In this document: positions 3,083 to 19,378 of the stretch, piece after piece | Layout: every line of letters starts with the position of its first letter | How positions within the stretch are numbered: position 1 is the first letter of the stretch | NCBI GenBank assembly: GCA_963850305.1 | Contig: CAWKKR010000007.1 | Span: forward strand, 608,001 to 672,000 | Direction: 5' to 3' | Source: an uncultured delta proteobacterium | Lineage (GTDB): Bacteria > Myxococcota_A > Polyangia > Polyangiales > Polyangiaceae | Length of the DNA: 64,000 nucleotides | Position numbers and translations under genes: made by a program | The notes under the pieces: generated by a model | What the model was told of the DNA's origin: nothing | The model's input: only the letters and a program-made list of their open reading frames with translations | Databases searched by the model: none

Positions 3083-3757
3083 CTAGGGGCGTTCCGGGAA
3101 TCGGCGCCGGGTCGATCGTGCAAACTCCGTGATCTCGGCGCGCGACTTGACCCCGAGCTTTTTTCTTATCCGATGACGATACGCCTCGACGGTGCCTACG
3201 CGCACGCCGAGCGCCGTAGCGATTTCCGGCCCCGTGTACCCGCGGGCGATGAGGTCCAGGACGGCGTTCTCTCGCGCGCTCAGATGAAAGGCTCCGGGCG
3301 CGTCGCGCTCGTCGTGAAGGAGATCCTCCGCGACCCGTGAAGCGAGGGGCTCGTCGACGAAGCGTCTCCCGAGGCGGGCGCCCCGAATGGCGTCGAGGAG
3401 TCGAGCCTCGGGTGCCTGCTTGAGGACGTATCCGGATGCGCCGGCGCGCAGGGCCAGCGCCGCCTCCACCGAGTCGTCGAACGCGGAGAACACGACAATG
3501 CCGATGGTCTGCGTCTCGCGTCGCGCCGCGGCGATCGTCTCCAGGACTCCGCCGCCCGGCATTCGTAGGTCCGTCACGATGACGTCCGGCTGCACCGCGC
3601 GTACGCACGCGAGCAGCTCTTTCGAGTCGCTCGCTTCGCCGACCACCATCATGTCGCGCTGGCTCTGGAGCAGCGATCTCAATCCCGCCCGCACGACCGC
3701 ATGATCGTCGGCGACGACGACGCGGATGCGCTCTGCTGGATTAGCGACTGACGCCAT
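3083..3757 (-). CDS. NarL/LuxR-family response regulator
   Basis: Receiver motifs VVADDH, TDLRMP and YVLK; C-terminal LSARENAVLDLIARGYTGPEIA...TVEAYRHRIRKKLG HTH. Confidence 0.93.
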   Translation of the reverse strand: MASVANPAERIRVVVADDHAVVRAGLRSLLQSQRDMMVVGEASDSKELLACVRAVQPDVIVTDLRMPGGGVLETIAAARRETQTIGIVVFSAFDDSVEAALALRAGASGYVLKQAPEARLLDAIRGARLGRRFVDEPLASRVAEDLLHDERDAPGAFHLSARENAVLDLIARGYTGPEIATALGVRVGTVEAYRHRIRKKLGVKSRAEITEFARSTRRRFPERP

Positions 3758-3956
3758 CGGGGCGATTTCCCAGAACGCACTATCACGGAGAAGTCACGGA
3801 AAGCGGTCCGGTAAAGTAATCCTTTATCGGGTGACAGGTTCTCCAACCGAAATACAGGCCCTTGTTTCCTCCGGTGTAATGGAAACCAGTTGTCTTGATT
3901 CGTGTTCATTTGCGGCAAATTAGGCCCGAAACCGTTGCCGGTCGTAAGAAGGGCGC
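3758..3956. promoter_or_regulatory. Divergent intergenic/promoter region between the response regulator and the GNAT cassette
   Basis: Visibly more AT-rich than the flanking genes; direct repeat TCACGGA at 3783-3789 and 3794-3800. Confidence 0.4.
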
Positions 3957-4670
3957 GTGCGAAGTCAACGGATCACGGAGGACGTCCAGCGGGCTCCCGA
4001 AGTGGACTCGCCGCCAGCTTCCGAGCGACTTCCGCGGGCGTCGCTCTCCGAGCTGCTCTGGCAGATCGACTGGACCGAGCACCTTCCCTTCGAGGTCACG
4101 AGCGGCATCGTCGTCCACGCGAGCACGTTCGAACGGTCCACGCCGTTCATTCGCGAACACTATCAAACGATCTTCGAAGAGAACGAGGAGAGTCCCTTCG
4201 CGGCGCGTCTAGCGGGTCGGAAGGAACGATACTACCGCGTCGCTGCCGACTTCTTCGAGTTCAAGGACGGCGAGGCGACGGTCGGTCTCCTGATCGGCAC
4301 ACCCGTCGATTGGTCGACCTATTACATCCGCAGCGCCGCAGCTCTCCCGAAGTACCAGGGAAAGAAGATCATCCAGCGCTTCTTCCCGAAGATGTTCGAC
4401 GTGCTTCGCGAAGCAGGTCTGGAGCGCGTCGAAGCGGACACGTCCCCGTCGAACATGGCGACGCTGCACTTGCTTACGCGGCTGCGTTTCAACCCGACGG
4501 GATCGCTCCTCTCGGACCGTTGGGGTGCGATGGTGCACTTCACTCGGTTTCTCGGCGAGCAGAGCGAAGACGTCTTCCTGCGCCAGTTCTGCACTGGCGT
4601 CGGTTATCAGCTGCGCGAGAGGGCTCGCCGCGCAGCTGCGCCCAGCGAGCCAGACGGGAGATCCACGTGA
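3957..4670 (+). CDS. GNAT-family N-acyltransferase
   Basis: YIRSAAALPKYQGKKI (motif A-like) and VEADTSPSNMATLHLLTRLRF (motif B-like). Confidence 0.75.
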   Translation: MRSQRITEDVQRAPEVDSPPASERLPRASLSELLWQIDWTEHLPFEVTSGIVVHASTFERSTPFIREHYQTIFEENEESPFAARLAGRKERYYRVAADFFEFKDGEATVGLLIGTPVDWSTYYIRSAAALPKYQGKKIIQRFFPKMFDVLREAGLERVEADTSPSNMATLHLLTRLRFNPTGSLLSDRWGAMVHFTRFLGEQSEDVFLRQFCTGVGYQLRERARRAAAPSEPDGRST

Positions 4671-4699
4671 AGAAGAAATTCGCGCACACCTGCATCTGA
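4667..4699 (+). CDS. Putative 10-aa peptide MKKKFAHTCI (candidate RiPP precursor)
   Basis: GTG AAG AAG AAA TTC GCG CAC ACC TGC ATC TGA. The start overlaps the GNAT stop (GTGA) and GGGAG lies 6 nt upstream (4656-4660). It sits between modification-type enzymes. Confidence 0.55.
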   Translation: MKKKFAHTCI

Positions 4700-4769: not shown

Positions 4770-5443
4770 ATGATCAGCCAGACATTGAGAAGCCGAGATC
4801 GATCGATATGCGGCGGACTTGAGCCAGAGGCCGGCTGCTTGCGAAGGCCCGGGCCGGGCGGGTGCGGCCCTCGACCGTCGGGCGCTACCTCGCGAGCGTC
4901 CACTACATGCTCCGGCAGACGCCAGCTCCATCTGCGTCTCGCTCGACAGCGGTCCGAAACAGCTAGGCCACTCGGAGCTCGCCAGCTATTTCGAGCAGCA
5001 AGCTCGACGAGGAGGTCGGTCACGACCAGTGGGCGAAGAGCGATATGGCGAAGGTCTCGGAGCTCTCGCGGCCAGGCAAAGTGCGAGCGGCCGTCGCCTG
5101 CCATCGTCGCGATGATGGCCGCGGTCGGGCGCGGGATCGAGCGCGACCCCACCTCTATCTCGCTTACATTCTGTTCGCCGAATACCTCACGGTGAAGCTT
5201 GGTCCGGAGTGGGTCGCCGCTCTCGATGGGCGCTGCGGGGTGCCCGCGTCGGCGTTGACTGTGGCAACGAAGCACATCGAGCTCGATCAGCACCACGTGC
5301 AGGAGGGTTGTGACGAAATCGACGCGCTCGCGGTCGATCCAGCGCTGCCCGGGCCGCTCCTCGAGATGCTTCACGAAAGCATGAGGCACTTTTCGGCCTT
5401 CTGCGACGATCTCTACGACGACGCCTGCGACTCCGCTGCCTGA
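4770..5443 (+). CDS. Heme-oxygenase-like iron-containing redox enzyme (HDO/PqqC-like fold); apparent frameshifts
   Basis: Stitched across frames: RYLASVHYMLRQTP...LASYFEQ/KLDEEVGHDQWAKSDM...YLAYILFAEYLTV...KHIELDQHH. The ExxH and HxxxDxxH metal-ligand pattern is present. Confidence 0.7.
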
Positions 5444-5449
5444 CGGATC

Positions 5450-6466
5450 ATGATCGCGCTGGAGGAGGCCCGAGCGCAGCACCGGAGCGCCGTCTGAGCG
5501 CGTTCGAGTGGCCCGAGCCGCCGGAGGTGTTTCGCGAGACGGCCAGGGTCGTCGGGGTGCCGATTCACCTCTGTGGCGTCACGCTCGAACGGGACGGCGA
5601 GTGCATTTCCGGTAGTGCGGCGTCGCTCGACGCGGATCCGATGCCACGAGCGCTGTTCGAGCTGTTCGAGCGCGTGGCCCTGGTGGACGCAATGCGACGA
5701 GGCGCCCGAGCGCTCTGGTGGTGTTCGACGTGGCGCGGCGCCCTATCGCCGTCCTGTCCCGGCCGCGCGCGTTTTTCCTGTGAACCAGGAGCCGGAGCCG
5801 CATCCGCTGGGCGCGTTCGAACGGGGTCGCGGCGGGCATCGGGTGGGCAGACGCAGCTCGACGCGCGCGGCTCGAGCTGGTCGAACGGGATCGGGTGTTA
5901 CGGTCCTGGCTCGGGCAACTGCGTCCAGTGCCTGCGAGCGTCCCGCTGGCCTGCCGGCGGCCATCCGCGAAGCGTACGACTTTCATTGTTATTCGTTCGG
6001 CGAGCCTCCTGACATGGCGGCCGGGAGTGTTCGCTTTTCCGCCAGACGGGCAGCCCCTGAGCTACGGTTTCGCCGCGCGCGATACGAGGGAAGCGTCGCT
6101 GGCGGCAGCCGCGGCAGAGTGTTTGCAGCGGCTCGGATTTCTCTACGGGGAGGCAATACCCGACGTCGTCCCGGAGGCTTCCCCGACTCCGGACTTTCAC
6201 CAGGAGTACTTTCTTTTTCCTCCGCATCGCGAGCGCATCGAGCGGTGGCTGAATGGCGAGCACGCTCGATTCGCCGCGGCGTCGGGCGGGCTGCGGACCG
6301 TGAAAGAACCCGGTTTACGTGGATCTGACGCCGCGGCTGGCCCGCTCCGATATCGTCGTCCTGAAGGCGCTGCCGCGAGGGCATGTTCCGCTCGCTTTCG
6401 GTTTCGGTGGGTGTCCGGTCGGCGAAGGCGCTGCCGTCGGAGCTCGCTGTCCATCCGATCGCTTAG
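5450..6466 (+). CDS. YcaO-like protein; apparent frameshifts
   Basis: Stitched: GSAASLDADPMPRALFELFERVAL; RWARSNGVAAGIGWADAARRARLELVERDRVLRSW (YcaO SNG...ExxERD ATP-binding motifs, SNG at 5817); AAAAAECLQ; YVDLTP; C-terminus ELAVHPIA with the stop at 6464-6466. Start is approximate. Confidence 0.75.
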
Positions 6467-6544: not shown

Positions 6545-9500
6545 ATGGTTCAGGCGGCGATTCCTCACGTCGAGCTGGGCGTCGAACTCGGGCGCGGCGC
6601 GCACAGCGTCGTCCTGCAGGGCGTCCGGGGCGGCCGTTCGTACGCCGTGAAGCTTCCGCTCGAGGCCGAATCCGCCGGCGGAGCGCGAGATGGCGTTCCG
6701 CCGCTTCCTGCGGGAAGCGGCGGCGCTCGCGCGGCTTCACCACCCGTCGCTTCCCGCGGTGATGGAAGTCGGGCGTGCCAATGGCGTGCCGTACCTCATC
6801 ATGGAACTGGCGGCGGGGCAGACTCTCGCAGACAGACTCGAACTGAGCTCGATGGGTGAAGGGGCGGTCGCTCAGCTTGCGCTCCAGCTCGCGGGCGCGC
6901 TCGAGGCCATCCACGCAGCGGGGCTCCTTCACCGCGACGTGAAGCCGCGCAACATCGTGCTTCGACGTCGAAACCGGCGTGGCCCGGCTGGTCGACTTCG
7001 GCTCGGCGGTTCTGGCGTCGGGGCCCGCAATGTCGGGCGTCACTCGCGCGTACGCGGCGCCCGAGGTACTCGCCGGCGGTCCAGTACGTCAGCGACGCGC
7101 GAGCGGACCTCTATTCGCTGGGTCAGGTCTTGCTCGAGGCGCTCTGGTCCGCATGCTCGGGCGGCACAAGGTCTCCGTGGCCCTCCGCGAGGCCACCGCG
7201 CGAGCCCGCGAACCAACAGGGACCGCTGTCCCTGGCCAATATTCTGGCGACGGCTCGTCGAGGCGAGCCCGCCGACCGATACCCGAGCGCCACCCGCCTC
7301 CGCGAGGACCTCGAGGCCATCGTCGGCGCGCAATCCGTTTCGGGTCCCATCGCAATCCGGCAAAGGCTGCTCGGCCGCGCGACGGAGATGGATCGACTCC
7401 GTCGAGCGTGGGCAGAGGCCCAACGAGGGGGGCGTGCCGTGGTGCTTCGGGGCGCTCCCGGAGCCGGCAAAACTCGGCTGGCTCGAGCGTTCCTGCGGAC
7501 TCGACCGAGCCAGGGCGTGCGGGTGCTTGCGGCCGGCTGTCACCCCCGCGATCCCCGTGCGTTCTCGGCCATACGGCAGCTCGTCGAAGCGCACCTGAGG
7601 AGTTGCGAGGCGCTGCCGGCCGCGGAACGCGCGCGCGCTTTCTCCAGCGTTCGACGAATCGCAGGGCGACCTCGGCTCGTTACTCCGGCTCCTGTCCCCG
7701 TACGTCGCGCGCGTGTTCCGCGACGCTCCCATGGTGCCCGCATCCGAGAATGCGGAGCAAGCGTTCGCAGAGGGTCTGGCCGAGTTTCTCATGAAGCTCG
7801 TGCGCACTGACCGGCCCGACGGTGGTGTTCGTCGATGACGTCCAGTGGCTCGACGCGGGAAGTCGTCGAGTGCTCGTTCGCGCGGCCAATCAAATTGCCA
7901 ATCGAGGCGTGCTGTTCCTGTTCGGGGCCCGAGACGGGGAGGCCGCCGCGTGACGTCAATCGCTTGCTCGATGTGCTGTCCGCGCCCGTCTCCGACATCG
8001 AACTCTTGCCCTTGGAGGATGACGACGTCGTCAGCCTCGTTCACGAATATCTGGGCACGGCCGCCATCGACGACGAGCTGAAGCGCGCCGTGCTGCGCCT
8101 GTCGGACGGACTTCCGTTCCGGACGCTGGAGGTGCTTCGGACCCTGACGGACGAAGGAGTGCTCCTGCCGTACTGGGGGCGGTGGCGGCTCGATCCCACC
8201 GCGCTCACGCGGATGCACCTGCCGAGCGAGACGGCGACTATCCTCCGGCGCCGCATTGCTGCACTCGACGGGGTAACTCACTCGGTCATGGCCGCCGCTG
8301 CGGTCATCGGCGTGTCGTTCGAGGAATGGTTGCTCGTCGTCAGTGGCCTCGTCTTCCAGGGGCGTGGCGGATGTGTCCGCGGCGCTAGCCGAAGCGAGGC
8401 GATCGCAGCTCATCGAGGACGCCGGCGAAGGTGTCCAGCGGTTCATCCATCATACCGTTCGCGAAGCATTGCTTGCAGGCTGTGACGCGGCGGCGCTCGA
8501 AGACTTGCATCAGCGCGTCGGGGAAGACGCTCGACGCCCGCGGTTGGGCGGCAAACGCGCCGATCGCGTTCGAGATCGAAGAGCGCGCTGACGCGGCGAC
8601 TCCAGCCTCGGCTGAGCCGCTTCCCGACCGGGACTCCCTGGATGCGGACAGGTTGTATCGGGTTGCCCACCATTATGCCGCGGGCGACGAGCGCCGGGCA
8701 GTCTCGCGTCGGGCGGAGACGTGCGTCGCTGCCGCACGAGCCGCCTTCGCACGATTCGACAACGAACGCGCTGCCGACTTTTTCACTGTCGCCGACCGCG
8801 CGCTCGCGTCGCTCGGAAAGTCGCTGACGCCCGAGACTCGCTTGCTCCTCGCGGACGCGCGCCTGCGTGCCGGCGCTCTCGAGGAAGCATCGTCGGAATT
8901 CCAGCGGATCCTCTCGGAGAGTTCGGATCGCTATGTGCAGGCGACAGCGTTGTTGCGCTTGGCGTCGCTTCACGACATGCGGTTCGATTCGATTCAGAGC
9001 ATGGAACTACATCGAGCAAGCATTCTGCAGGCTCGGGGAAACGCCTCCTTCCGAGGCTGCGGCCTACACGGTCCAGAGCCTCGGCGCGTGGGGGAGAAGG
9101 GGTCTCGCGCGGTCCGCGAAGAGTGCCGTTCGGCCCTTCCGAGCAGCTGCACCACGAGACGCTCTGCGCCCTCTATTACCAGGCGACGCGGATCGCCGTT
9201 ACCAACGGCAAGCCGCTGCGGGGCGTGCTTGTGACGCTGCAGTCTGTCCGGGCCGCTGAGCGCCTTGGGCCGTCGGCGGCGCTCGCTCGCTGTTACCTGG
9301 CGTATAGCTTCGTCCTCACTGTGCTGGGGTTTCCGTCCCGCGGCACGAGTTACCTTGCCCGAGCCGAGGGGATCGCCCGCGAGCTTCGCGATCCGTTCGT
9401 CTATTCGCACGCGCTGCAGATGCACATGGTGATCGCCGCGTGGGGCGGGCGAATCCAGGATGCCATCGACGCCGGAGCTCGGTGCGTCACCGAATACGGG

Positions 9501-12081
9501 CACTGGCGCGAGCTCAGCGAGTTTTGCATCAACTGCTACACCGTCTACCAGATGGAATCCGTGCGGGGCCGGGAGCTCGAGGCGTGGCGCTGGGCGGATC
9601 TCGCCATCCAGCGCGTGAACAATCATGATGGAGCGCCCGTCGTCCATGAGTTCCTGCTGCTCGGCGCCAAGGCAGCCCTGTGTGCGCTCGGAAGGGAAGA
9701 CGAGATCGATTCGCGGCTTCAGCGGCTGGCGCAAGTGACGGTCGCCGTCCCCCCGGACAGCGGCTCCTTCGCGTCGACCTTCAGCGGTCGAATCCGGATG
9801 CACACGGAGAAGGCCGATCTCGGCGAAGCTTTCGAGTCGCTAGTATCGGATTTTCAGGCACTCGGCCAAGACCCGCGCCGGGTCCACATGAACGTCACGG
9901 AGTATTACGTCCACGTCGCTCACGCCCGGGTTCACGCTTGCCTGCGCGCGCGTCCGGAAGCGCGGTCGAAGCCGCTCGCGGAGCTGGGGGCGGCGCTAGG
10001 AGATCTTCGTGCGGCCGCGAAGATTCCGCTGATCTCGGCCCACGCGCGCGTCGTGGAGGGTTACCACGAATGGCTTTCCGGTCACTCGAACGCGGCTCAG
10101 CGCGCGTTCGAAGAGGCCGAGCGCCTCGCGGTTTCCGAGACGGCGCCATGGGTGCTCTACGCTGTCTACCGCGGACGCGCGCACCTCCTCCAGGCCGAGG
10201 GGAAAGTCGACGCCGCACGGGATCAAGCCGTCCTGGCGGAGTCCGTCGCCTCCGAGCACGGCGCGGCGCACCGCGCGCGATGGATTCGCGAGGAGTTTGG
10301 CGGTCGTGCCCGGAGAGGCTCGGACGGCAGCGACATCACGGGCTCTCTGTCGTTGCCCTCTCCGGACCTGACCGACATGGTCGCGCCGGCCGGCGCCTCG
10401 AGAGCGCGACGACAGCTCCGGGCGCTCCTTCGCATCAGCCAGGCGCGCGCGCAAGATCTCACGCCGGATCACCAGGCGCGGCTCGTCGTGGACGAGCTCA
10501 TCCTGGCCCTGCGCGCGCAGCGCGGGTTTCTCCTCCTTCGCGCGGGGATGGCGGGCGCCGCTGGAGTCGACGGGAGCGAGGATAGGACCCGAAGCGATCC
10601 ACCGCTTCGCCTGGTCGCGGGAAGGGATTCGGCGGGACGGAATCTCGACGGTCCGGAAGACTACGACCGGAACGCTGTCCGTGGCGCTCTCTTCGCGAGC
10701 GTTGCAGACAGCGAGGACCCCGCGTCCCTACGGTTTCGAGTCGCGACGAGCGCGCGTTTGACTGCCATCGCCGCGCCGCTCATCGTCGACGATCTCACTG
10801 CGGGCGTGATCTGTCTCGACCGGCCCTTGACCGAGGGTGTCTTTTCCGAGGCGGACGGCGCACTACTCACGGCTCTGGCGGCGCAGGTTGCCGTCGCGCT
10901 CGAACTGACCCGAGCTCTTCGCGCCCGTGAACGCGCCCAGGAGAGCTTGCGCAACGCGGAAAAGATGGACGCGGTCGCGCGACTCGGCAGGGCGATCGCG
11001 CACGATCTGAACAACATGCTCTCCGCGATCCGTCTCGCCACGATGGCCATCGTGGCCCTGCCCGGAGCAAGCTCGATGATCGGTGATGACGTTCATACCA
11101 TCCAGAGCGCGTTGCAGCGCGCGAACGAGCTCACGAAGCAGCTCGGGACCTTCTCCCGCGGAGAGTTTGCCAAGCCGGGGCTGGTGAAGGTCGGGCCGCG
11201 CATCGATCGCCTGCTGCCGGTCATCGCAGGCCTCGTCGGGGAATCCATCCGTATTCGTGCGGAGGTTGCGCCGCGTACCTCGCCGATCATGATCGACCCC
11301 GACCAGCTCGATCACGTCTTGATGAACCTCGTCGTGAATTCGCGGGATGCCATGCCGGATGGCGGCGAAATTCTGATCGCGGTAGCCGAGGTGAGGCTCG
11401 ACGAGGCCTACGTCACCGAGCATCCCCGCGTGGTCGCCGGGCGCTACATCCGGATCTCCCTGACGGACACCGGCCACGGCATGGACGAGGAGGTCCGTGG
11501 AAAGATCTTCGAGCCCTACTTCACGACCAAACGAGAGCGTGGCGGAACCGGGCTCGGCCTTGCGAGTGTTTACTGGGCGGTCTCGGCAAGCGGCGGACAC
11601 GTCGACGTTCGAAGTGGTGTCGGGACCGGAACGACGTTTACGTTGCACTTCCCCGTCGCGGGTAAAGGCGTTCCGGGCGCCCGCTCCGAACCGAGGGCCG
11701 TGGATTGTCCGACCCTTCTAGTCGTCGAGGCAGGGCGACCCGAGACGCAGCACGTTGAGCGGACTCTGGCGGAGCTCGGGTACCGCGTTCGGGTCGCGTC
11801 ATCTGCGGCGGACGCCATCGAGATGGTGCGGCAAAGCAACGACATTGCGCTCGTCATCACGGATGTCGTGATGGTGGGCATGAACGGGCTCGAACTCGCA
11901 CGGAGGATTCGTGGCGCCAGAGAGGACGTGGAGGTTCTGTTGACCTCTGGGGACCGCTCCGGAGTTTTGGCGGAGCGCGGGATTCTGGGGGAAGAGGTCG
12001 AGATTCCTCCAGCGGCCGGTGGCCCCCGAAATCCTTGCCCGCCGCGTTCGCGAGATCCTGGCGCGCCAGCAGACCGAGTAA
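6545..12081 (+). CDS. Hybrid sensor: Ser/Thr kinase + AAA ATPase + helical repeats + GAF + histidine kinase + receiver; apparent frameshifts
   Basis: Fragments in successive frames: LGRGAHSVV/AVKL, FLREAAALARLHHP, HRDVKPRN, VDFG, YAAPE, GAPGAGKT, VFVDDVQW, GAF-like AAPLIVDDLTAGVICLDR, AHDLNN, NLVVNSRDAM, DTGHGM, FEPYFTTK, GTGLGL, LVITDVVM. The likely true end FLQRPVAPEILARRVREILARQQTE* is at 12081. Confidence 0.8.
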
Positions 12082-12352
12082 AGGACGCGCCCTTCTGGCG
12101 ACGCGTCCTTGCGCGAGCTGCGGCGAGCGACTTATACTTATCAGTGCGCGGGCTGTCCCCACCCCCCCCGGCCCGGCCCAAAGTCGTGGGCCGGCGCTCC
12201 AGAGGCCGACCCCCCTCCTCACTGCGTGTGCCCTGGAGTACCGCGCGACGCGTTATGTCCCCCGCCGTATCGGCTCCACCCGATACGGCGGCTTCTTTTC
12301 CATCCACAGTGCCGGCCGCTCGCTGAATCGGCTCACCCCAGGCGAGGAAATC

Positions 12353-13099
12353 TCACTCGATGCAGCCGGCGCCGTCGCAGGTTTGCCCGGGGGCGCAGTC
12401 GGCGTCGCTCGAGCAATTCCCGCACCGATCGTCGACGGTGCGGCAGTGGAGGACGCCGCAATCCGAGTCGAGCAGGCATCCGACGCACGTCCCGACCCCC
12501 AGGTTGCACAGCGGGGTTTCGCCCGAACAATTTGCATCGCCGGTGCACTCCACGCAGACGCCCGCGGCTACCGCGCAGAGGGGTCGGTTGCCACCCGCGC
12601 AATCCGCGCTGCTGAAGCATCTCGCGACACAAGCGTGCTGGTCCGCCGGGCACGCCTGCCCCGGCGGGCATTCGGCCGAGGAGGTGCATCCGACACATCG
12701 GTGTTCATCAGCGTAACAGTGCGGCGTCGGGGGGTGGCATTCGGAATCGTCCGAGCAGAGAGCGCACGTGTGGCTCTGCAGGTTGCACAGGTTCGTCGCG
12801 CAATCCTGGTCAGCGGTGCACTCGACGCAGGTCTTCGACCGTGTGTCGCAGACCGGCGTCGCGAGCTCACATTCTGCATCCGTCCTGCACCCACCACCGT
12901 CGATCCGCGGCTCGAGCACGTCGGCGGGATCGGTCTGCCTCATGGTTGAGGCGTCTCTCGTCGCCTGATTGGGCACCACGCTGCTGGCATCGGCAGTGCC
13001 GCTGAACAGAGAAATGGTTTCCGTGTGCTGGCCGCACCCGAGGGTGGACGACATCGCGCATGCCACGACGGTCGCGAGCCGGAGTACCGAATCATTCAC
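12353..13099 (-). CDS. Cys-rich repeat lipoprotein (myxobacterial type)
   Basis: Signal plus lipobox-like TLGC; repeated CxxDxxC...PxC...CVxC units. Confidence 0.8.
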   Translation of the reverse strand: MNDSVLRLATVVACAMSSTLGCGQHTETISLFSGTADASSVVPNQATRDASTMRQTDPADVLEPRIDGGGCRTDAECELATPVCDTRSKTCVECTADQDCATNLCNLQSHTCALCSDDSECHPPTPHCYADEHRCVGCTSSAECPPGQACPADQHACVARCFSSADCAGGNRPLCAVAAGVCVECTGDANCSGETPLCNLGVGTCVGCLLDSDCGVLHCRTVDDRCGNCSSDADCAPGQTCDGAGCIE

Positions 13100-13114: not shown

Positions 13115-13834
13115 TCAGCGTTGAGGCGCGCCCTGCGCCGCGGGCACGGCGAGACGGCGCGCTTCGTTCACGTCCATGCCGCTCGGCTGCTCCGCGAGAT
13201 AGCGTCGCGCCTCGCTGGACGCCTGGCGCAGCTCTCCCAGTCGTTCGAGAGCGCGGAAGCGCTCCACCTCTGCATTCTGGCGAAGCGGTGAGGCGGGATA
13301 TCGGGCGATCAGAGCGTCGAGCAGCGCGACGGCTCGAGCATCACGGCCGCCGCGCGCCTCGATGAGAGCGTTCTGCATCAAGGCATTCTCGGCGGCGAGC
13401 GTGCTCTTCTTCGTCGCAGATCGAGCGCGTACCCCGAGTCCGTTGCGTCGCACGTCTCCATGCAGGGCGGGTGCGACGACGGGGCCCGCGTCCTTTACGC
13501 CGCGCACGTTCACCGCACCAACGGGCTGCCCCGGCCCAGCCTCATCGAAGAGGGGTGCCACCGGGGGGGCCCCCGCTTTTCCAAAGTAGGGGTCCCAGAT
13601 GCGCGCCGTGGCTGCCAGGGCGCCCGCCGACGACAGTAGTACGAGCGCCGCCACGAGTACGCGTTTGCGTATCGACAGTTCGACCTCCCGCCGGGTGCTG
13701 CTGCGGATTTGAAGCTCCCTCAAGCGAGCCACGGTGGAATCTCGACGCGTCTCGATCCGGTCCGCGCTTTCGACGGGAATGACCGTCGTACGCATCTCGC
13801 GCAGCAGGTCTTCCGGGCGGGGCGCGTGGGTCAC
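13115..13834 (-). CDS. Probable membrane anti-sigma-like protein with a C-terminal TPR-like module
   Basis: One TM segment (VLVAALVLLSSAGALAA); C-terminal LAAENALMQNAL...LIARYPASPLRQNAEVERFRAL; overlaps the ECF sigma stop. Confidence 0.65.
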   Translation of the reverse strand: MTHAPRPEDLLREMRTTVIPVESADRIETRRDSTVARLRELQIRSSTRREVELSIRKRVLVAALVLLSSAGALAATARIWDPYFGKAGAPPVAPLFDEAGPGQPVGAVNVRGVKDAGPVVAPALHGDVRRNGLGVRARSATKKSTLAAENALMQNALIEARGGRDARAVALLDALIARYPASPLRQNAEVERFRALERLGELRQASSEARRYLAEQPSGMDVNEARRLAVPAAQGAPQR

Positions 13835-14508
13835 GTTCTTCTCCGTTCCGGGTCCATCGACCCATCTGCCATGAGGCGGCGCTGCAGCTCCTTCCGCGCC
13901 CGGACCAGCCGCGATTGCGCCGCGGCGACCGAGACGCCGGTGAGAACGGCGATCTCCGCGAGTTCATGACCCATCACGTCGTGAAGGAAGACGGTCGTTG
14001 CACGAGACCGATTCATGTCGGCAAGATGGAAGCGCACTCGTGCAAGTGCTTGCCTCACTCCGGCTTCGCGCTCGACATCCAGGTGTGTCCCGCGGCTCCG
14101 AGCTTCATGCTCGCCGTCACGTCCCCGATCGACCACTCGGCGCTCGCGGGTCCGGGCCCGGATCGCGTTGAAGGCAATATGCGTCGTCACGCTGGCGGCC
14201 CAAGAAGGGAGGCTACAGGCGCGTGCGAAGCGCTTTCTCGAGAGGGTGAGAACGATTTGTTCGAAGGCGGCCTGGACGAGATCATCGTGGGCTTCATCCC
14301 GGCGCCCGAGGACCCGATAGAGAGTTCCTTCGACGACGCCGATCAGGCGGTCGTACAGATGCTCACAAGCGTGCCCCTCGCCGCGCTCGAACGCATCGAT
14401 CAGATCCCCGTCATCCAGGTGACGCGCGCTCGAATCCGCCCCGCCTTCGACCACGCGAAGATGCTCAGCCCCAGCGCGAGATCTCGATTCGGCGGCCACT
14501 TCAAGCAA
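13831..14508 (-). CDS. ECF-type RNA polymerase sigma factor
   Basis: Region 2 (HDDLVQAAF...SLPSWAASVTTHIA) and region 4 (VFLHDVMGHELAEIAVLTGVSVAAAQSRLVRARKEL). Confidence 0.88.
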   Translation of the reverse strand: MLEVAAESRSRAGAEHLRVVEGGADSSARHLDDGDLIDAFERGEGHACEHLYDRLIGVVEGTLYRVLGRRDEAHDDLVQAAFEQIVLTLSRKRFARACSLPSWAASVTTHIAFNAIRARTRERRVVDRGRDGEHEARSRGTHLDVEREAGVRQALARVRFHLADMNRSRATTVFLHDVMGHELAEIAVLTGVSVAAAQSRLVRARKELQRRLMADGSMDPERRRT

Positions 14509-14538: not shown

Positions 14539-15609
14539 TCACGGAACGTAATATCGGAGCCCGAGCAGTCCGCTGAACCCCGCCGCGTCGTCGGTCGCGA
14601 CTCGATGATTCTCCACGATAATTTCGATCGATGACGTGGCCCGCCACGCCGTGGCACCGGCTAGAAACCCGAGATCGCCCGCGCGAATGACGAAGTCGGT
14701 GCCGGCTGACAGATTGACGGTGCCCCTTCCGCCCGCGTCGCTGCCGCGTTCCGTCGGATTCGTCGCGACCACGCGGACAAATTGCCATCCGAAGCCTATC
14801 TGTGGCTCGACGAAGAAGGGGGGACTCCCCAGAATCGCACCGGCAGCGAGGGACGCGGTCTCCCACTCTGCGTAGAGTCCCTGGCCGTCCGTCGGGCGGG
14901 CCGCGAATCCCAATTCAATCCCGGCGAACCACGGCGCGGATGTGGGACGAAACGCGGCGCTTCCCTGGGCCCCAAAGCGTAGGCCGCCGGGATGTAGCCC
15001 CGGTCCTCCACGCGCTGCGACGCCAAACCAGAGCTCTCGAGCCGACGCGTTCGCGCGCGTCGTCTTCGCCATCGTTCTTTCGGCGGAAGCCGCGGACGTT
15101 GCAGCCGGCGCCGGTTTCTCGTCGAGATCGGATGCACCCTTGCGAACCGTCTGCGGGACGCCCGCCCGTTGTGTTTCCGCGATGGTGACCCCTGGATTTT
15201 CCGGCGGAAACATTCCGTCGGCGAGCGTCGCGATCGTGAGCCCGACAGTCTTCCACCGCTCTTCGGGAGCATCGGAGCGATGGAATTCGAGCGACCGGGT
15301 TTGCCAATCGGGATTGTCCGACTGCGGCCTACCGACCTGGACGATGACGTGTAGGTCGTCGGGCTCGTCCCAGTGCACGATGGCGACGTCTTCCGGCGCC
15401 GAGGTTCGATCGGGGAAACTCGCGCATCTTCCAGCTCGTACCCCCGACGAACACGCGTCGACGAGGGCCCTGACCAGAGCTGGCGCTGAGTCGGTCGGCG
15501 AGATCTGAACGAGGACGAATGGCATCTGAGTCGGAGCCGAGGTTACTAGCACCGTCGTGGTGCGCGGCGCCGGGTGCGCGGTTCCCTTGGACGTGCGTTG
15601 CTGTCGCAC
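14539..15609 (-). CDS. Hypothetical exported protein with a beta-strand-rich C-terminus (possible outer-membrane protein); start uncertain
   Basis: Amphipathic strands ending FSGLLGLRYYVP; first gene of the ECF cassette. Confidence 0.55.
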   Translation of the reverse strand: MRQQRTSKGTAHPAPRTTTVLVTSAPTQMPFVLVQISPTDSAPALVRALVDACSSGVRAGRCASFPDRTSAPEDVAIVHWDEPDDLHVIVQVGRPQSDNPDWQTRSLEFHRSDAPEERWKTVGLTIATLADGMFPPENPGVTIAETQRAGVPQTVRKGASDLDEKPAPAATSAASAERTMAKTTRANASARELWFGVAARGGPGLHPGGLRFGAQGSAAFRPTSAPWFAGIELGFAARPTDGQGLYAEWETASLAAGAILGSPPFFVEPQIGFGWQFVRVVATNPTERGSDAGGRGTVNLSAGTDFVIRAGDLGFLAGATAWRATSSIEIIVENHRVATDDAAGFSGLLGLRYYVP

Positions 15610-15673
15610 CTTGGCTCACCGAGCGGTCGCTTCGCGGTTTCGCGCGGCGAAAATAGGCTCTAGTCTTCCTGCA

Positions 15674-17905
15674 ATGAAGCCCGGTTCCATTCGTTGGGTG
15701 AGCGCTTCGGTCGCGCTAGGCTGCCTTGCGAGCGCTTGTTCCTCCAGTCCCCATCACGGTGCGACTGACGGCGGAACCAAGCAGCTGCTCTTCAACCCTC
15801 CGACAACGCCGGACGGAGGCATTTTCATCACTCCTTCGAACCCGGTTTTCACGGTAAATCCGAACGGGCCGCCCCCAGCCCCAGTTCAATTTCACGTGCA
15901 CAACCAGGGGTCAGCGGTTGTATCCTGGAGCATTTCGAATCCGTACCTCGGAGCCATCGACACGAACGGCCTCTTCACCCTTTACGGCCAGGCCGGCGGC
16001 GCGGGTGACATCCAGGTCACGGTGAACGGCGTGGTGGTCGCGTCCGTCCACATCAGTGTCGATGTGAATCAGACTCAAAACGGCTCGTCGAGCAGCGACG
16101 GTGGCGCGACGGTCGTCGGCGACGCCGGCGCTGGTGGCCTCGGTGGGGTCGGAGGCGAGGGACTCGGTGGCCCGATCTCGTCGGCGCTCGTCAATGTGTT
16201 GAACGGAACCCCCGCGGCGGACAGCGCTATCACCTTTCTGTATCCCTATGACCAGACCGTGTTCCCGCTCGGCATTCTTCCCCCGCTCTTCCAGTGGACG
16301 AGCGGCAGCCACGGTAACATCGATGCCATTTACGTCCACATCTCGGCGCCGCCCTACTTCGACTACAAGGGCTATTTTGGCCGACCGGCTGCGCTGGCGG
16401 CTGGCTCGGATTACGTCCGGAGCCCCGTTCCGAAGGACGTCTGGACCGCCGCGACGAACAGTGCCGCGGGCAGCGTTCTGACGACTGAGTTCGTCTTTGC
16501 CGCCGGAGGCACGGCCTACGGTCCGCTCACCCAGCATTACAAGATCGCGCTCGCGCCGTTCAATGGACGAATCTACTACCAGGCGTACGACACGGCGTTC
16601 GTCAAGAACTCCACGTCCGGGGAGACAGTCATTTGGGACCACAAGTCGCGGTTCGGTGCGGCGACGCTGTCGATCGATGTGGGAGCGGAGTCGCCGAAGC
16701 TCGTTGCGGGGACGACCACGAATGACAACTCTGGATGTCGAGTGTGCCACTCAGTGTCGGCGTACGGAGATCGAATGGTCGTACAACACGGGGACGACTA
16801 TGCAGCGACATCCGCGTACGACCTCAAGAACAACAACGCGGAGACGACACCCTATGCGGATGGGACCGTCGGATGGGCGGGCATGTCCTCCGACGGAACG
16901 ATCGGGCTCGCGAACTCGATCAGCGTAACGGGCTCCACGTCGAACACCGGCGACACCAAACTATACAACATGAGCACGGGCGCAGTGATCCCGTCACCGG
17001 GCTTGAATGAATTTGCCACGAGGATCGGTTTGCCCGCATTCTCGCCGGACACGAAGCACGTCGCCTTCACCTTCTTCGACGGGCCTGGCGCCGCCCTCGT
17101 CGGCGGAACGAACGGACACCAGCTGGTGACCATGGACTTCGACGCCACGACCGATACGTTCTCGAATCCGAAGAAGCTGTGGGACGCCCCGGGCTCCGAT
17201 CAGCGACCCTCTTTCATGACCTTCATGCCCACGAGCGACGCGGTCGTCTTCGCCCGGCGCTGGGACGGCACGAACGGCGACATCTTCTCGAGCTGGTACG
17301 GTTCTCGAAGTGAGCTCTGGTGGGTAGACCTCGGGACTGGCAAAGCAGTCCCTCTGGCCACGGTCAACGGGATGGGGGCCGATGGGAAGAGCTACCTTCC
17401 CGTGGGGCCCAACAATCACGCCGCCGACGAGACGCTCAACTATGAACCGAGCATCAGCCCCGTCGCTTCCGGCGGGTACGCGTGGCTCGTCTTCATGAGC
17501 CGCCGTATGTACGGAAGCGTGGCGACGCGCGACCCGTGGGAGGCCGACCCGCGCGTTTACGACATCCATGGAGACAACCCGACGACGAAGAAGATCTGGA
17601 TGGCCGCGATCGATCTCAACGCTGCGCCGGGCACGGATCCGAGCCACCCGGCGTTCTACATCCCCGGGCAGGAGCTCAAGGGCGTCAACTCACGACCCTT
17701 TTTCGCCCTTCAGCCGTGTATCACCGACAACGGAGTTTGTCAGACCGGGATCGATTGCTGCACCGGATTCTGCCGAGAAGGGTTGTGTCAGCCACAGCCG
17801 CTCGACTCATGCTCGCAGCTCGACGAAAAGTGCGACACCTCCGCCAACTGCTGCGATACGAGCCTTCAATGCATCGGTGGCTTCTGCGCACAGGCGATTC
17901 ATTAG
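15674..17905 (+). CDS. Lipoprotein with TolB-like beta-propeller repeats and a Cys-rich tail
   Basis: Lipobox LASAC; YPYDQTVFP; GCRVCH; PAFSPDTKHV; SHPAFYIPGQE; C-terminal CQTGIDCCTGFC. Confidence 0.8.
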   Translation: MKPGSIRWVSASVALGCLASACSSSPHHGATDGGTKQLLFNPPTTPDGGIFITPSNPVFTVNPNGPPPAPVQFHVHNQGSAVVSWSISNPYLGAIDTNGLFTLYGQAGGAGDIQVTVNGVVVASVHISVDVNQTQNGSSSSDGGATVVGDAGAGGLGGVGGEGLGGPISSALVNVLNGTPAADSAITFLYPYDQTVFPLGILPPLFQWTSGSHGNIDAIYVHISAPPYFDYKGYFGRPAALAAGSDYVRSPVPKDVWTAATNSAAGSVLTTEFVFAAGGTAYGPLTQHYKIALAPFNGRIYYQAYDTAFVKNSTSGETVIWDHKSRFGAATLSIDVGAESPKLVAGTTTNDNSGCRVCHSVSAYGDRMVVQHGDDYAATSAYDLKNNNAETTPYADGTVGWAGMSSDGTIGLANSISVTGSTSNTGDTKLYNMSTGAVIPSPGLNEFATRIGLPAFSPDTKHVAFTFFDGPGAALVGGTNGHQLVTMDFDATTDTFSNPKKLWDAPGSDQRPSFMTFMPTSDAVVFARRWDGTNGDIFSSWYGSRSELWWVDLGTGKAVPLATVNGMGADGKSYLPVGPNNHAADETLNYEPSISPVASGGYAWLVFMSRRMYGSVATRDPWEADPRVYDIHGDNPTTKKIWMAAIDLNAAPGTDPSHPAFYIPGQELKGVNSRPFFALQPCITDNGVCQTGIDCCTGFCREGLCQPQPLDSCSQLDEKCDTSANCCDTSLQCIGGFCAQAIH

Positions 17906-17962
17906 GAGTCGGAGCTCGCAGGTTTCGCCGAGCACCACTCTGTTGGCCCGCTGATGCTGTCT

Positions 17963-19186
17963 TCAGAATCCGCCGAGGCCGACCACGGAATTCATCGCCT
18001 GGCCCTGATGGGACATGTCGGTCGTGTAGAAGATGCCGGAGAAGATGCACATCTCGTTCGTTGCGGCTGATTCCCCGAAAGTAAGCGTATTCCCCGTATT
18101 ATTGTCGTACATACACGACCACGTGATGGTGGTGTTCGCCGGGACGGGGATCGGCGGCGAGTAAGCCTCCGGCTTCGGCTCGTTCCAGCAATCCCCGGTC
18201 GAGCAGGCGTAGAGGGTTGTGCCGGTGTTCGTGCTCGCGTTGAAGCCTACCGCGCGCGCGTGCATGTGACTCACTCCGCTGATCATCTCCGACGCAAACG
18301 GCGTCGTGTAGGTCGCGCTCTGAGTGCTGCTGCCAATCGGGACCGTGAGGAGCGCTTGATTCAAGAACATCTCCTCCGCGAGGTATTGAACCTGGTTTCG
18401 AGGCACGTAATGGAACTTCACCGTGACCTGGCCGGTGATCGTGTCCTCCGTCAGGTTGATGTAGTGCACCATGATCTGCAAGCCCTCGGTCGCGCTCAGG
18501 AAGCGGCCAACTCCTGGCGGATATGTAATGGTCTGCGTCGGGGTCTGTGCGGAGTGCAGGAAGTCGGAGAACTCCGTGCCCGAGCAGTCGACGACGGCGT
18601 TGGTGTCGGTCGTGTACGAGGTGCTGTGGAAAACGAACATGTGATGCGAGCCCGGCGACATCGCCGAATCGCTCTCGAGGATCGCGATGTCCTCGCCGAA
18701 GGGGTTCGCGAAGTTCTGACACTTGTAGACATCCTGGCCGCCGACTGCGACGGGGAACTGGACCGTCGAGATATCTTTCTCCATGGTGGTCGGACCACCT
18801 CCGCCTGTGCCAGTCGCGTCACCCCCGGCGCCCGCCGCGTCGCCTCCCGCACCGGTCGTCTCGCCACCGGCTCCTGTCACGTCAGTGCCGCCCGCCCCGA
18901 TCGTGCTCCCACTTCCGCCCGCCCCGTAGCTTGCGCCACCCGATCCCGTCACTGCGAAAGCGGAACCCCCGGCGCCCGCGCTCGGGAAACATATGTCCGC
19001 GCACTTCTGCGTGTCCTGGAGCATGCAAAAGCATTGTTCGGAGCAATCTTGATATTTCGCGCATTCGGCCGTGAGGGCATTGTCGTTCTCGCCGGAATTC
19101 GAGCCGCTGTTCGCCGCGCTGGTGCCGCAGCCGGCCAGAAGAACGAGAAGTGAACTCAGCCCGAAATTTTTCATGACCATTGTCAT
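17963..19186 (-). CDS. Lipoprotein with a copper type II (PHM/DBH-like) monooxygenase domain
   Basis: RBS AAGGAG; lipobox LLAGC; Gly/Thr linker; Cu ligand motifs SHHMF, SHMH and GESAATNEMC. Confidence 0.78.
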   Translation of the reverse strand: MTMVMKNFGLSSLLVLLAGCGTSAANSGSNSGENDNALTAECAKYQDCSEQCFCMLQDTQKCADICFPSAGAGGSAFAVTGSGGASYGAGGSGSTIGAGGTDVTGAGGETTGAGGDAAGAGGDATGTGGGGPTTMEKDISTVQFPVAVGGQDVYKCQNFANPFGEDIAILESDSAMSPGSHHMFVFHSTSYTTDTNAVVDCSGTEFSDFLHSAQTPTQTITYPPGVGRFLSATEGLQIMVHYINLTEDTITGQVTVKFHYVPRNQVQYLAEEMFLNQALLTVPIGSSTQSATYTTPFASEMISGVSHMHARAVGFNASTNTGTTLYACSTGDCWNEPKPEAYSPPIPVPANTTITWSCMYDNNTGNTLTFGESAATNEMCIFSGIFYTTDMSHQGQAMNSVVGLGGF

Positions 19187-19378
19187 GGGTTGCTCCTTGG
19201 AAGACTTCGTCCCACTCAACCTCCAATAATGCCCGTATGTGCGCCCGCTTCATCAAGCCTTGCACGTCAATCTCTTTGCTATTGAGGTCAGGCCGACGTG
19301 CCTGGCCGAAAGTTGAAAGACAACGAGAAATTAGCCGTTGGCGAGCCGTCACGGCACAGAGTTGAATCAGAGGAACTG

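Follow-up and report, generated by a model that had tools for sequence, protein, structure and literature searches.

Very short conserved peptides with a predicted YcaO modification site, encoded in a kinase-containing cassette of uncultured myxobacteria

The window analyzed here is a stretch of 64,000 nucleotides from G000, the genome of an uncultured delta proteobacterium of the Polyangiaceae. It carries a cassette in the order GNAT–sORF–diiron HDO–stand-alone YcaO–hybrid Ser/Thr/His kinase, with a short open reading frame (sORF) directly behind the first gene. The features are listed below; residues of the peptide are numbered backward from its last residue, which is position -1.

3083..3757, minus strand: LuxR-type response regulator, divergent, not part of the core (3/70 loci)
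3957..4670, plus strand: GNAT-fold protein, 237 aa, intact (PF00583, E 5e-8)
4656..4660, plus strand: GGGAG, Shine–Dalgarno-like element of the sORF (sequence)
4667..4699, plus strand: sORF, predicted precursor MKKKFAHTCI with Cys9 at the conserved -2 site (sequence and homologous loci)
4770..5443, plus strand: heme-oxygenase-like diiron oxidase (HDO) gene, about 7 frameshifts (homolog comparison)
5450..6466, plus strand: stand-alone YcaO gene ending in HPIA, about 6 frameshifts, start read from the sequence (PF02624)
6545..12326, plus strand: hybrid kinase, Ser/Thr kinase-AAA_16-TPR-like-GAF-HisKA-HATPase-REC, frameshifted in the first 1.9 kb (domain matches)

The divergent LuxR regulator was considered as a core part and rejected because of its rarity at homologous loci. 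The cassette is flanked by Cys-rich, probably secreted proteins of a myxobacterial type (3–2858 and 12353–13099, both on the minus strand, and 15557–19219), and a sigma/anti-sigma-like pair is present at 13115–14508; all of these were named by eye.

The sORF reads GTG AAG AAG AAA TTC GCG CAC ACC TGC ATC TGA, with its stop codon at 4697–4699. The original prediction, a hidden ten-codon ORF behind a GGGAG ribosome-binding site and with a GTG start coupled to the GNAT stop, is borne out: six bases separate the GGGAG from the GTG at 4667, which overlaps the TGA of the GNAT gene (4668–4670). Searches for promoters, terminators and Rfam families around the sORF gave no match. The HDO and YcaO genes of this copy are interrupted mostly by single extra bases, and the start of the kinase gene has several breaks. 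The frameshifts in HDO, YcaO and the kinase are probably assembly errors in a locally poor region, and a 151-nt contig from another run (depth 2), in which three bases are missing at 5757 and 5798, is a weak hint. The rpoB and rpoC genes of G000, in contrast to these three, are intact, so the window copy could also be inactive or decaying.

Homologs of the GNAT gene were collected from 301 genomes of the family (48 with a match), from metagenomes (80 loci) and from GTDB contigs (21 loci, all titled metagenome-assembled genomes and mostly Polyangiaceae), after which the set was extended. Scanning the GTDB contigs with a single protein gave no match; it was the alignment-based scan that yielded these loci. 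The 169 loci comprise 124 non-redundant ones, of which 10 were set aside because a contig ended within 100 nt or the match was cut, and 114 are informative. One of the latter (L010/L162), from one of the 48 genomes, belongs to the unpublished genome G289; its peptide is also found in a metagenome locus (L050). Candidate sORFs were sought by a pattern consisting of a K/R-F/Y-A/S/V head, four residues of any kind and a stop codon, which leaves C/S/T at position -2 unconstrained. Within 460 nt of the GNAT end, this pattern is present at 109 of the 114 informative loci. Across the whole of G000, the loose leader pattern occurs in 44 of 66,318 short ORFs (8–22 aa), and the window sORF is the sole one among those 44 that starts with MKK. 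Because of this rarity and the recurrence at homologous loci, the window sORF is more than a chance ORF, and the hidden ORF is real.

MKKKFAHTCI is thus one of a set of conserved, very short peptides from uncultured myxobacteria. The family counts 114 sORFs and 96 distinct peptides, 88 of which are 9 or 10 aa long, with the consensus MKK[K/R]FA-x-x-[C/S/T]-hydrophobic. Among the distinct peptides, position -6 is F in 93 and Y in 3, and position -5 is Ala in 92, for which all four Ala codons are in use. Positions -4 and -3 accept 9 and 12 residue types, respectively, and position -1 is F, L, I, V or M in 88. The sORFs start with ATG or GTG and all three stop codons occur; GGAG, GAGG or AGGA lies upstream of 109/114, and the start overlaps the GNAT stop in 49/114. 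Tandem sORFs are found in three loci besides L080. Translation of the DNA behind homologous GNAT stops therefore gives what had been anticipated, a conserved head (MKK[K/R]FA) followed by a variable four-residue tail, although the division into an MKKKF head and an AHTCI tail has to be shifted, as the invariant head includes the Ala. The tail does differ between peptides, but it is not freely variable, since position -2 is always C, S or T. Likewise, the head is conserved as expected of a mini-leader or recognition tag, but nothing supports its removal as a leader: no conserved protease is seen among the neighbors at these loci, and the head may for that reason stay on the product.

The five informative loci in which the pattern is absent (L080, L104, L065, L122, and L124) differ in kind. 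The operon of L080 is rearranged and three sORFs precede its HDO (MKKHATLCA, MKKYATVCL, and MKKYATITA). L104 carries MKKLFATKLRHAA, which has Ala at -2 and breaks the C/S/T rule. In L065, L122 and L124 no sORF is seen near the GNAT homolog; L122 does have YcaO, HDO and kinase, in another arrangement. G299, which was missed by the GNAT query, encodes MKKFALFTA. Longer precursors of 12–22 aa occur in L078, L079, L085, L091, L093, L094, L109 and L155; they have extra Lys/Asn-rich N-termini and an unchanged FA-x-x-[C/S/T]-x end. In the 90 nt after the sORF, a run of at least five G is present in 32/103 loci, compared to 12.4 expected, and a fold z below -2 in 56/103, so that this structured RNA is possibly an mRNA-stabilizing hairpin.

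The strongest constraint on the peptide lies at position -2, which is Cys in 39, Thr in 35 and Ser in 22 of the distinct peptides, that is, C/S/T in 96/96. By comparison, 24% of the 66,318 short ORFs of G000 have one of these residues at -2, and within the family C/S/T is found at -3 in 25/96 and at -4 in 16/96 peptides. Both types of Ser codon, AGY and TCN, occur at -2. In a tree of the GNATs from the 99 loci that have a single peptide and a usable GNAT, position -2 changed at least 39 times (shuffled mean 45) and never left C/S/T, although of the missense point changes open to the -2 codons only 26% would remain within this set. Kinship is therefore no explanation for the constraint. Cys, Ser and Thr are described as the nucleophiles of YcaO cyclodehydration (PMC11575548), and a position that keeps to these three residues through so many changes fits a YcaO cyclodehydration site. 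Of the adjacent Thr and Cys that had been put forward as cyclizable, the Cys (Cys9) occupies the conserved position; the Thr (Thr8) lies at the variable position -3, where C/S/T is infrequent, and the pair is thus incidental. A Cys at -2 argues against phosphorylation or dehydration of Ser/Thr. Phosphorylation of this residue by the kinase was accordingly rejected, as Cys is the commonest residue there.

The enzyme expected to act on this site is the stand-alone YcaO. Five of five intact homologs score above the PF02624 cut-off, and so does the window copy (35.1 bits vs. 25.7). It is the single YcaO gene of G000. Residues E73, E76 and R77, S123, E142, E145 and R146, and E230 are invariant in 27 aligned rows and correspond to the Glu/Arg/Ser motifs of ATP/Mg binding. 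The YcaO is in or adjoining the cassette in 56/70 loci, and in five of five tested genomes without such a cis copy it is found elsewhere in the genome. In three genomes of one genus (loci L134, L135, and L136), the trans YcaO lies directly downstream of a shared gene of about 360 aa.

The second enzyme, HDO, follows the sORF in 87/96 loci. Residues E80, H83, E138, H169, D173 and H176 are invariant in 46 rows and agree with the HDO pattern of three His and three carboxylate iron ligands. The protein matches PDB 3DDE (E 1.7e-15), with CADD and UndA weaker; against PF14518, three of five homologs match below the cut-off and two do not match. HDOs are described as being able to hold a peptide via its C-terminal carboxylate, and UndA as a decarboxylase (PMC13185094). 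The curacozole enzyme CzlI was considered as an HDO and ruled out, as it is described as an Fe/2OG enzyme (PMC11575548).

HDO is not always present. A B12 radical SAM gene lies upstream of GNAT in 6/9 HDO-less loci (L111, L113, L114, L168, L038, and L059), compared to 0/69 HDO loci, and the peptides of these six are all 9 aa long and end in Phe. The six loci are adjacent on the GNAT tree, which makes a single replacement event probable. Two other HDO-less cassettes have a ThiF gene beside them (L117:6568–7521 and L131:9069–10025), the encoded proteins being 66% identical and both peptides having Cys at -2. As a candidate E1-like protein, ThiF is limited to these two loci and is absent from G000. 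The swapping of HDO for B12 radical SAM or ThiF suggests that the cassette has a slot for tailoring near the C-terminus of the peptide.

The hybrid kinase follows the cassette in 55/60 loci. Among the five others, it is convergent in L062, and a pair of response regulator and histidine kinase takes its place in L067 and L068. An OmpR-type regulator is present in the low-GC loci (40–54%; L067:8359–10023, L068:3232–5566, and L075:3483–4157), alone in L075 and beside a histidine kinase with a hydrophobic N-terminus in L067 and L068. The middle region of the hybrid kinase is TPR-like, with TPR_12 in 13/44 members, and has one match in G000.

Across the 301 genomes of the family, GNAT is matched in 48, YcaO in 48 and the sensor region of the kinase in 46, and the genomes concerned are almost the same ones. 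The 48 GNAT genomes include 47 with a cassette-type YcaO and 44 with the kinase sensor region; in the 253 genomes without a GNAT match, YcaO is found in one and the kinase in two. As the profiles were built partly from these same genomes, only four to seven candidates per genome were scored and the lists were compared by reading, what is informative is that they are almost missing from the remaining 253 genomes. The kinase match is missing in four GNAT genomes, three of which have the locus near a contig end; G140, in which the cassette is present and no kinase is matched, seems to lack it. G245, on the other hand, has the kinase alone, with no cassette gene in 18 kb. In a sample of the phylum, a homolog search matched only 4/401 genomes.

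The first gene of the cassette encodes a protein whose model (pLDDT 87.9) has the GNAT fold, with Z up to 15.9; the fold matches are tied (Z 14–16) and point to no substrate. The acyl-CoA loop motif of GNATs is (Q/R)xxGxG/A. The window protein reads QGKK at this loop, without the second Gly, which is present in 10/84 near homologs and in 73/150 wider ones. Because the loop is variable, acylation by this protein is uncertain. The GNATs form a large family, with 232 clusters when grouped at 50% identity (E up to 1e-30), and two proteins of about 415 aa (P0205 and P0258) are HDO–GNAT fusions.

From these elements, the sORF peptide is quite likely the precursor of a ribosomally synthesized product (RiPP). 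YcaO is predicted to cyclize it, Cys9 becoming a thiazoline, and the kinase of the operon would have this product as its ligand. The part of this explanation in which the peptide serves as YcaO substrate is well supported, with a high probability. In the proposed mechanism, the peptide would be made from a coupled and often structured message. YcaO would likely use ATP to close a single ring, a (methyl)oxazoline or thiazoline, between residue -2 and the -3 carbonyl; in the window peptide the ring site would be Cys9, with Thr8 at a variable position. HDO may then oxidize the C-terminal end, with a little better than an even chance either that the last hydrophobic residue is decarboxylated or that the ring is converted to an azole, and in cassettes with B12 radical SAM or ThiF in its place other end groups would result. 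Whether the GNAT-fold protein would bind the basic MKK[K/R]FA head, and might N-acylate it, is evenly balanced. The chances are similarly even that the product is sensed by the kinase through its TPR-like region, with lineage specificity coming from the variable tail.

The alternative that survives best departs from this mechanism in the kinase-sensing step alone: the modified peptide would be a metabolite of the antimicrobial or Trojan-horse type, comparable to microcin C, and the kinase would do no more than regulate the operon. Microcin C is described as having a seven-residue precursor whose C-terminus is modified by a ThiF-like enzyme (PMC11256085), which recalls the ThiF genes beside two of the cassettes, and the peptide head is cationic. 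We nevertheless consider this unlikely, as no conserved exporter or immunity gene is seen at the loci, the middle region of the kinase is cassette-specific and co-occurs tightly with the other genes, and a different signaling pair replaces the kinase in low-GC loci.

A second alternative, considered improbable, concerns the chemistry. The peptide would be a YcaO substrate that does not acquire a stable azoline, the amide between -3 and -2 being thioamidated, turned into an amidine or cleaved with ATP, releasing a C/S/T-X dipeptide. Several properties of the YcaO count against the azoline. Its C-terminus is non-canonical, with an HP[I/V/F]x tail in 26/27 rows instead of the PxPxP motif described for azoline formers (PMC12670281). 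Among the recurrent neighbors of the cassette no E1-like or RRE partner is seen, although one may be encoded elsewhere in the genome; the partner-less CzlD is described as inactive alone (PMC11575548). Archaeal thioamide-forming YcaOs rank first in Foldseek for the model of the protein (pLDDT 93, a bare YcaO domain), with a Z of 20.6 that is near the one of McbD (Z 22.3, rmsd 3.7, 295 aligned), and one of the matches is MusD, by its title an ATP-dependent peptidase. No protease is seen in the cassette. However, the formation of a thioamide or amidine needs no side-chain nucleophile, which leaves the invariably nucleophilic -2 residue unaccounted for. Moreover, the model aligns to its C-terminus with McbD (through the last residue), LynD, MusD and TruD, whereas the alignment with the archaeal enzymes stops at model residue 331–334. 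At the sequence level, TruD and LynD are the best PDB matches of a profile search; phmmer with one YcaO against the PDB gave no match.

It is more improbable still that the sORF is a regulatory leader peptide, a translational spacer or an unmodified small protein, with the enzymes acting elsewhere. The frequent overlap of its start with the GNAT stop and the structured RNA that often follows would suit such a role, but they explain neither the restriction of -2 to C/S/T nor the tandem copies with different tails, and the sORF is retained whether HDO, YcaO or the kinase is the next gene. That the sORF is the chance tail of a 265-codon off-frame ORF (3902–4699) with the same stop is a negligible prospect and already contradicted, as homologous sORFs begin at points between 164 nt upstream and 324 nt downstream of the GNAT stop and have their own ribosome-binding sites, and the off-frame ORF overlaps GNAT and has no Pfam match.

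Returning to the cyclized, kinase-sensed peptide, the cassette can be compared to several known systems. With TOMMs and other linear azol(in)e peptides (LAPs) it shares a precursor with heterocyclizable residues next to a YcaO, Cys, Ser and Thr being the predicted ring sites. By VIA Z the fold of the YcaO is closest to McbD of microcin B17, and a GNAT beside a YcaO is also known from goadsporin (GodH and GodD), where GodH is described to N-acetylate the product (PMC5303826). Unlike in these systems, the precursor is 9–10 aa long with one conserved site. The E1-like or RRE partner, flavin dehydrogenase, protease, exporter and PxPxP tail of LAPs and TOMMs are not seen in the cassette, which has a diiron HDO together with its dedicated hybrid kinase in their stead; neither a flavin dehydrogenase nor a leader protease or exporter recurs as a neighbor up- or downstream of the loci, and no TfuA stood out there. 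The cassette is not filed as a TOMM member, since two defining features, the partner protein and PxPxP, fail, but by analogy it would work like a minimal TOMM.

Other likenesses concern the C-terminal chemistry and the size of the precursor. In the srp proteusin, as described, YcaO SrpC forms thiazolines in the SrpE core LCCCW beside a terminal hydrophobic residue that is tailored by a second enzyme, the brominase SrpI (PMC10858898). A very short C-terminal core with a predicted ring next to a terminal hydrophobic residue is common to both; SrpE, however, has a long leader and three rings where the sORF peptide has a head of five to six residues and one site, and tailoring in the cassette would be done by HDO, B12 radical SAM or ThiF instead of a brominase. 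Daptides with a YcaO (DapY) are reported to couple C-terminal YcaO chemistry to oxidative decarboxylation, which resembles the chemistry predicted here; they differ in that their precursors are longer, the decarboxylation acts on a terminal Thr and depends on NAD, and the YcaO carries PxPxP (PMC12670281). Biarylitides and myxarylin, with at least one myxobacterial member, likewise have ultra-short precursors that evade gene calling (PMC13417212, PMC12951456); these are described as five residues long and cross-linked by a P450, whereas the present family spans 9–22 aa, and its cassette holds no P450 and its peptides no conserved cross-linkable aromatic pair. Microcin C (MccA and MccB) is similar in its short precursor and C-terminal chemistry (PMC11256085), but is not known to involve a YcaO; the peptides of the present family end in a hydrophobic residue, and a ThiF accompanies them only exceptionally. 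As for the kinase, its weak match to TIGR03903 (E 1.7e-61, 208 bits, below the cut-off of 706) and the name of that family, TOMM kinase/cyclase fusion, suggest a precedent for kinase–ATPase proteins beside TOMM clusters, although the cassette protein ends in GAF-HisKA-HATPase-REC. Of the two parts of peptide quorum-sensing systems, an exporter and a cognate receptor kinase, a candidate for the kinase is present and no exporter is seen at the loci. In the full-text literature searched, neither the cassette nor the motif is described, though YcaO network tables in supplements, or subscription journals, could list them.

Altogether, the cassette may represent a new, minimal YcaO RiPP class with a signaling logic of its own. 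A peptide of 9–10 residues, held in its entirety by the GNAT as a chaperone replacing the RRE, would receive one azoline and an HDO-made end group, and a dedicated Ser/Thr-STAND-TPR-histidine kinase would read it as a lineage-specific signal; taken as a whole, this proposal is tentative, at somewhat less than even chances. The peptides are easy to overlook, as gene callers miss the precursor. If the proposal is true, they would be YcaO substrates far shorter than those in the literature compared, recognized without RRE or E1, and peptide tailoring would be added to the roles of diiron HDOs. As there are 96 natural substrate variants and three interchangeable tailoring enzymes, inexpensive synthetic 10-mers could serve to probe the substrate rules. 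The proposal would, moreover, suggest a ligand for a large multi-domain kinase of myxobacteria, and the mostly uncultured family would gain a candidate for a kin-specific signal. If the signaling reading holds, about one in six Polyangiaceae genomes would encode a peptide autoinducer or second messenger of this kind.
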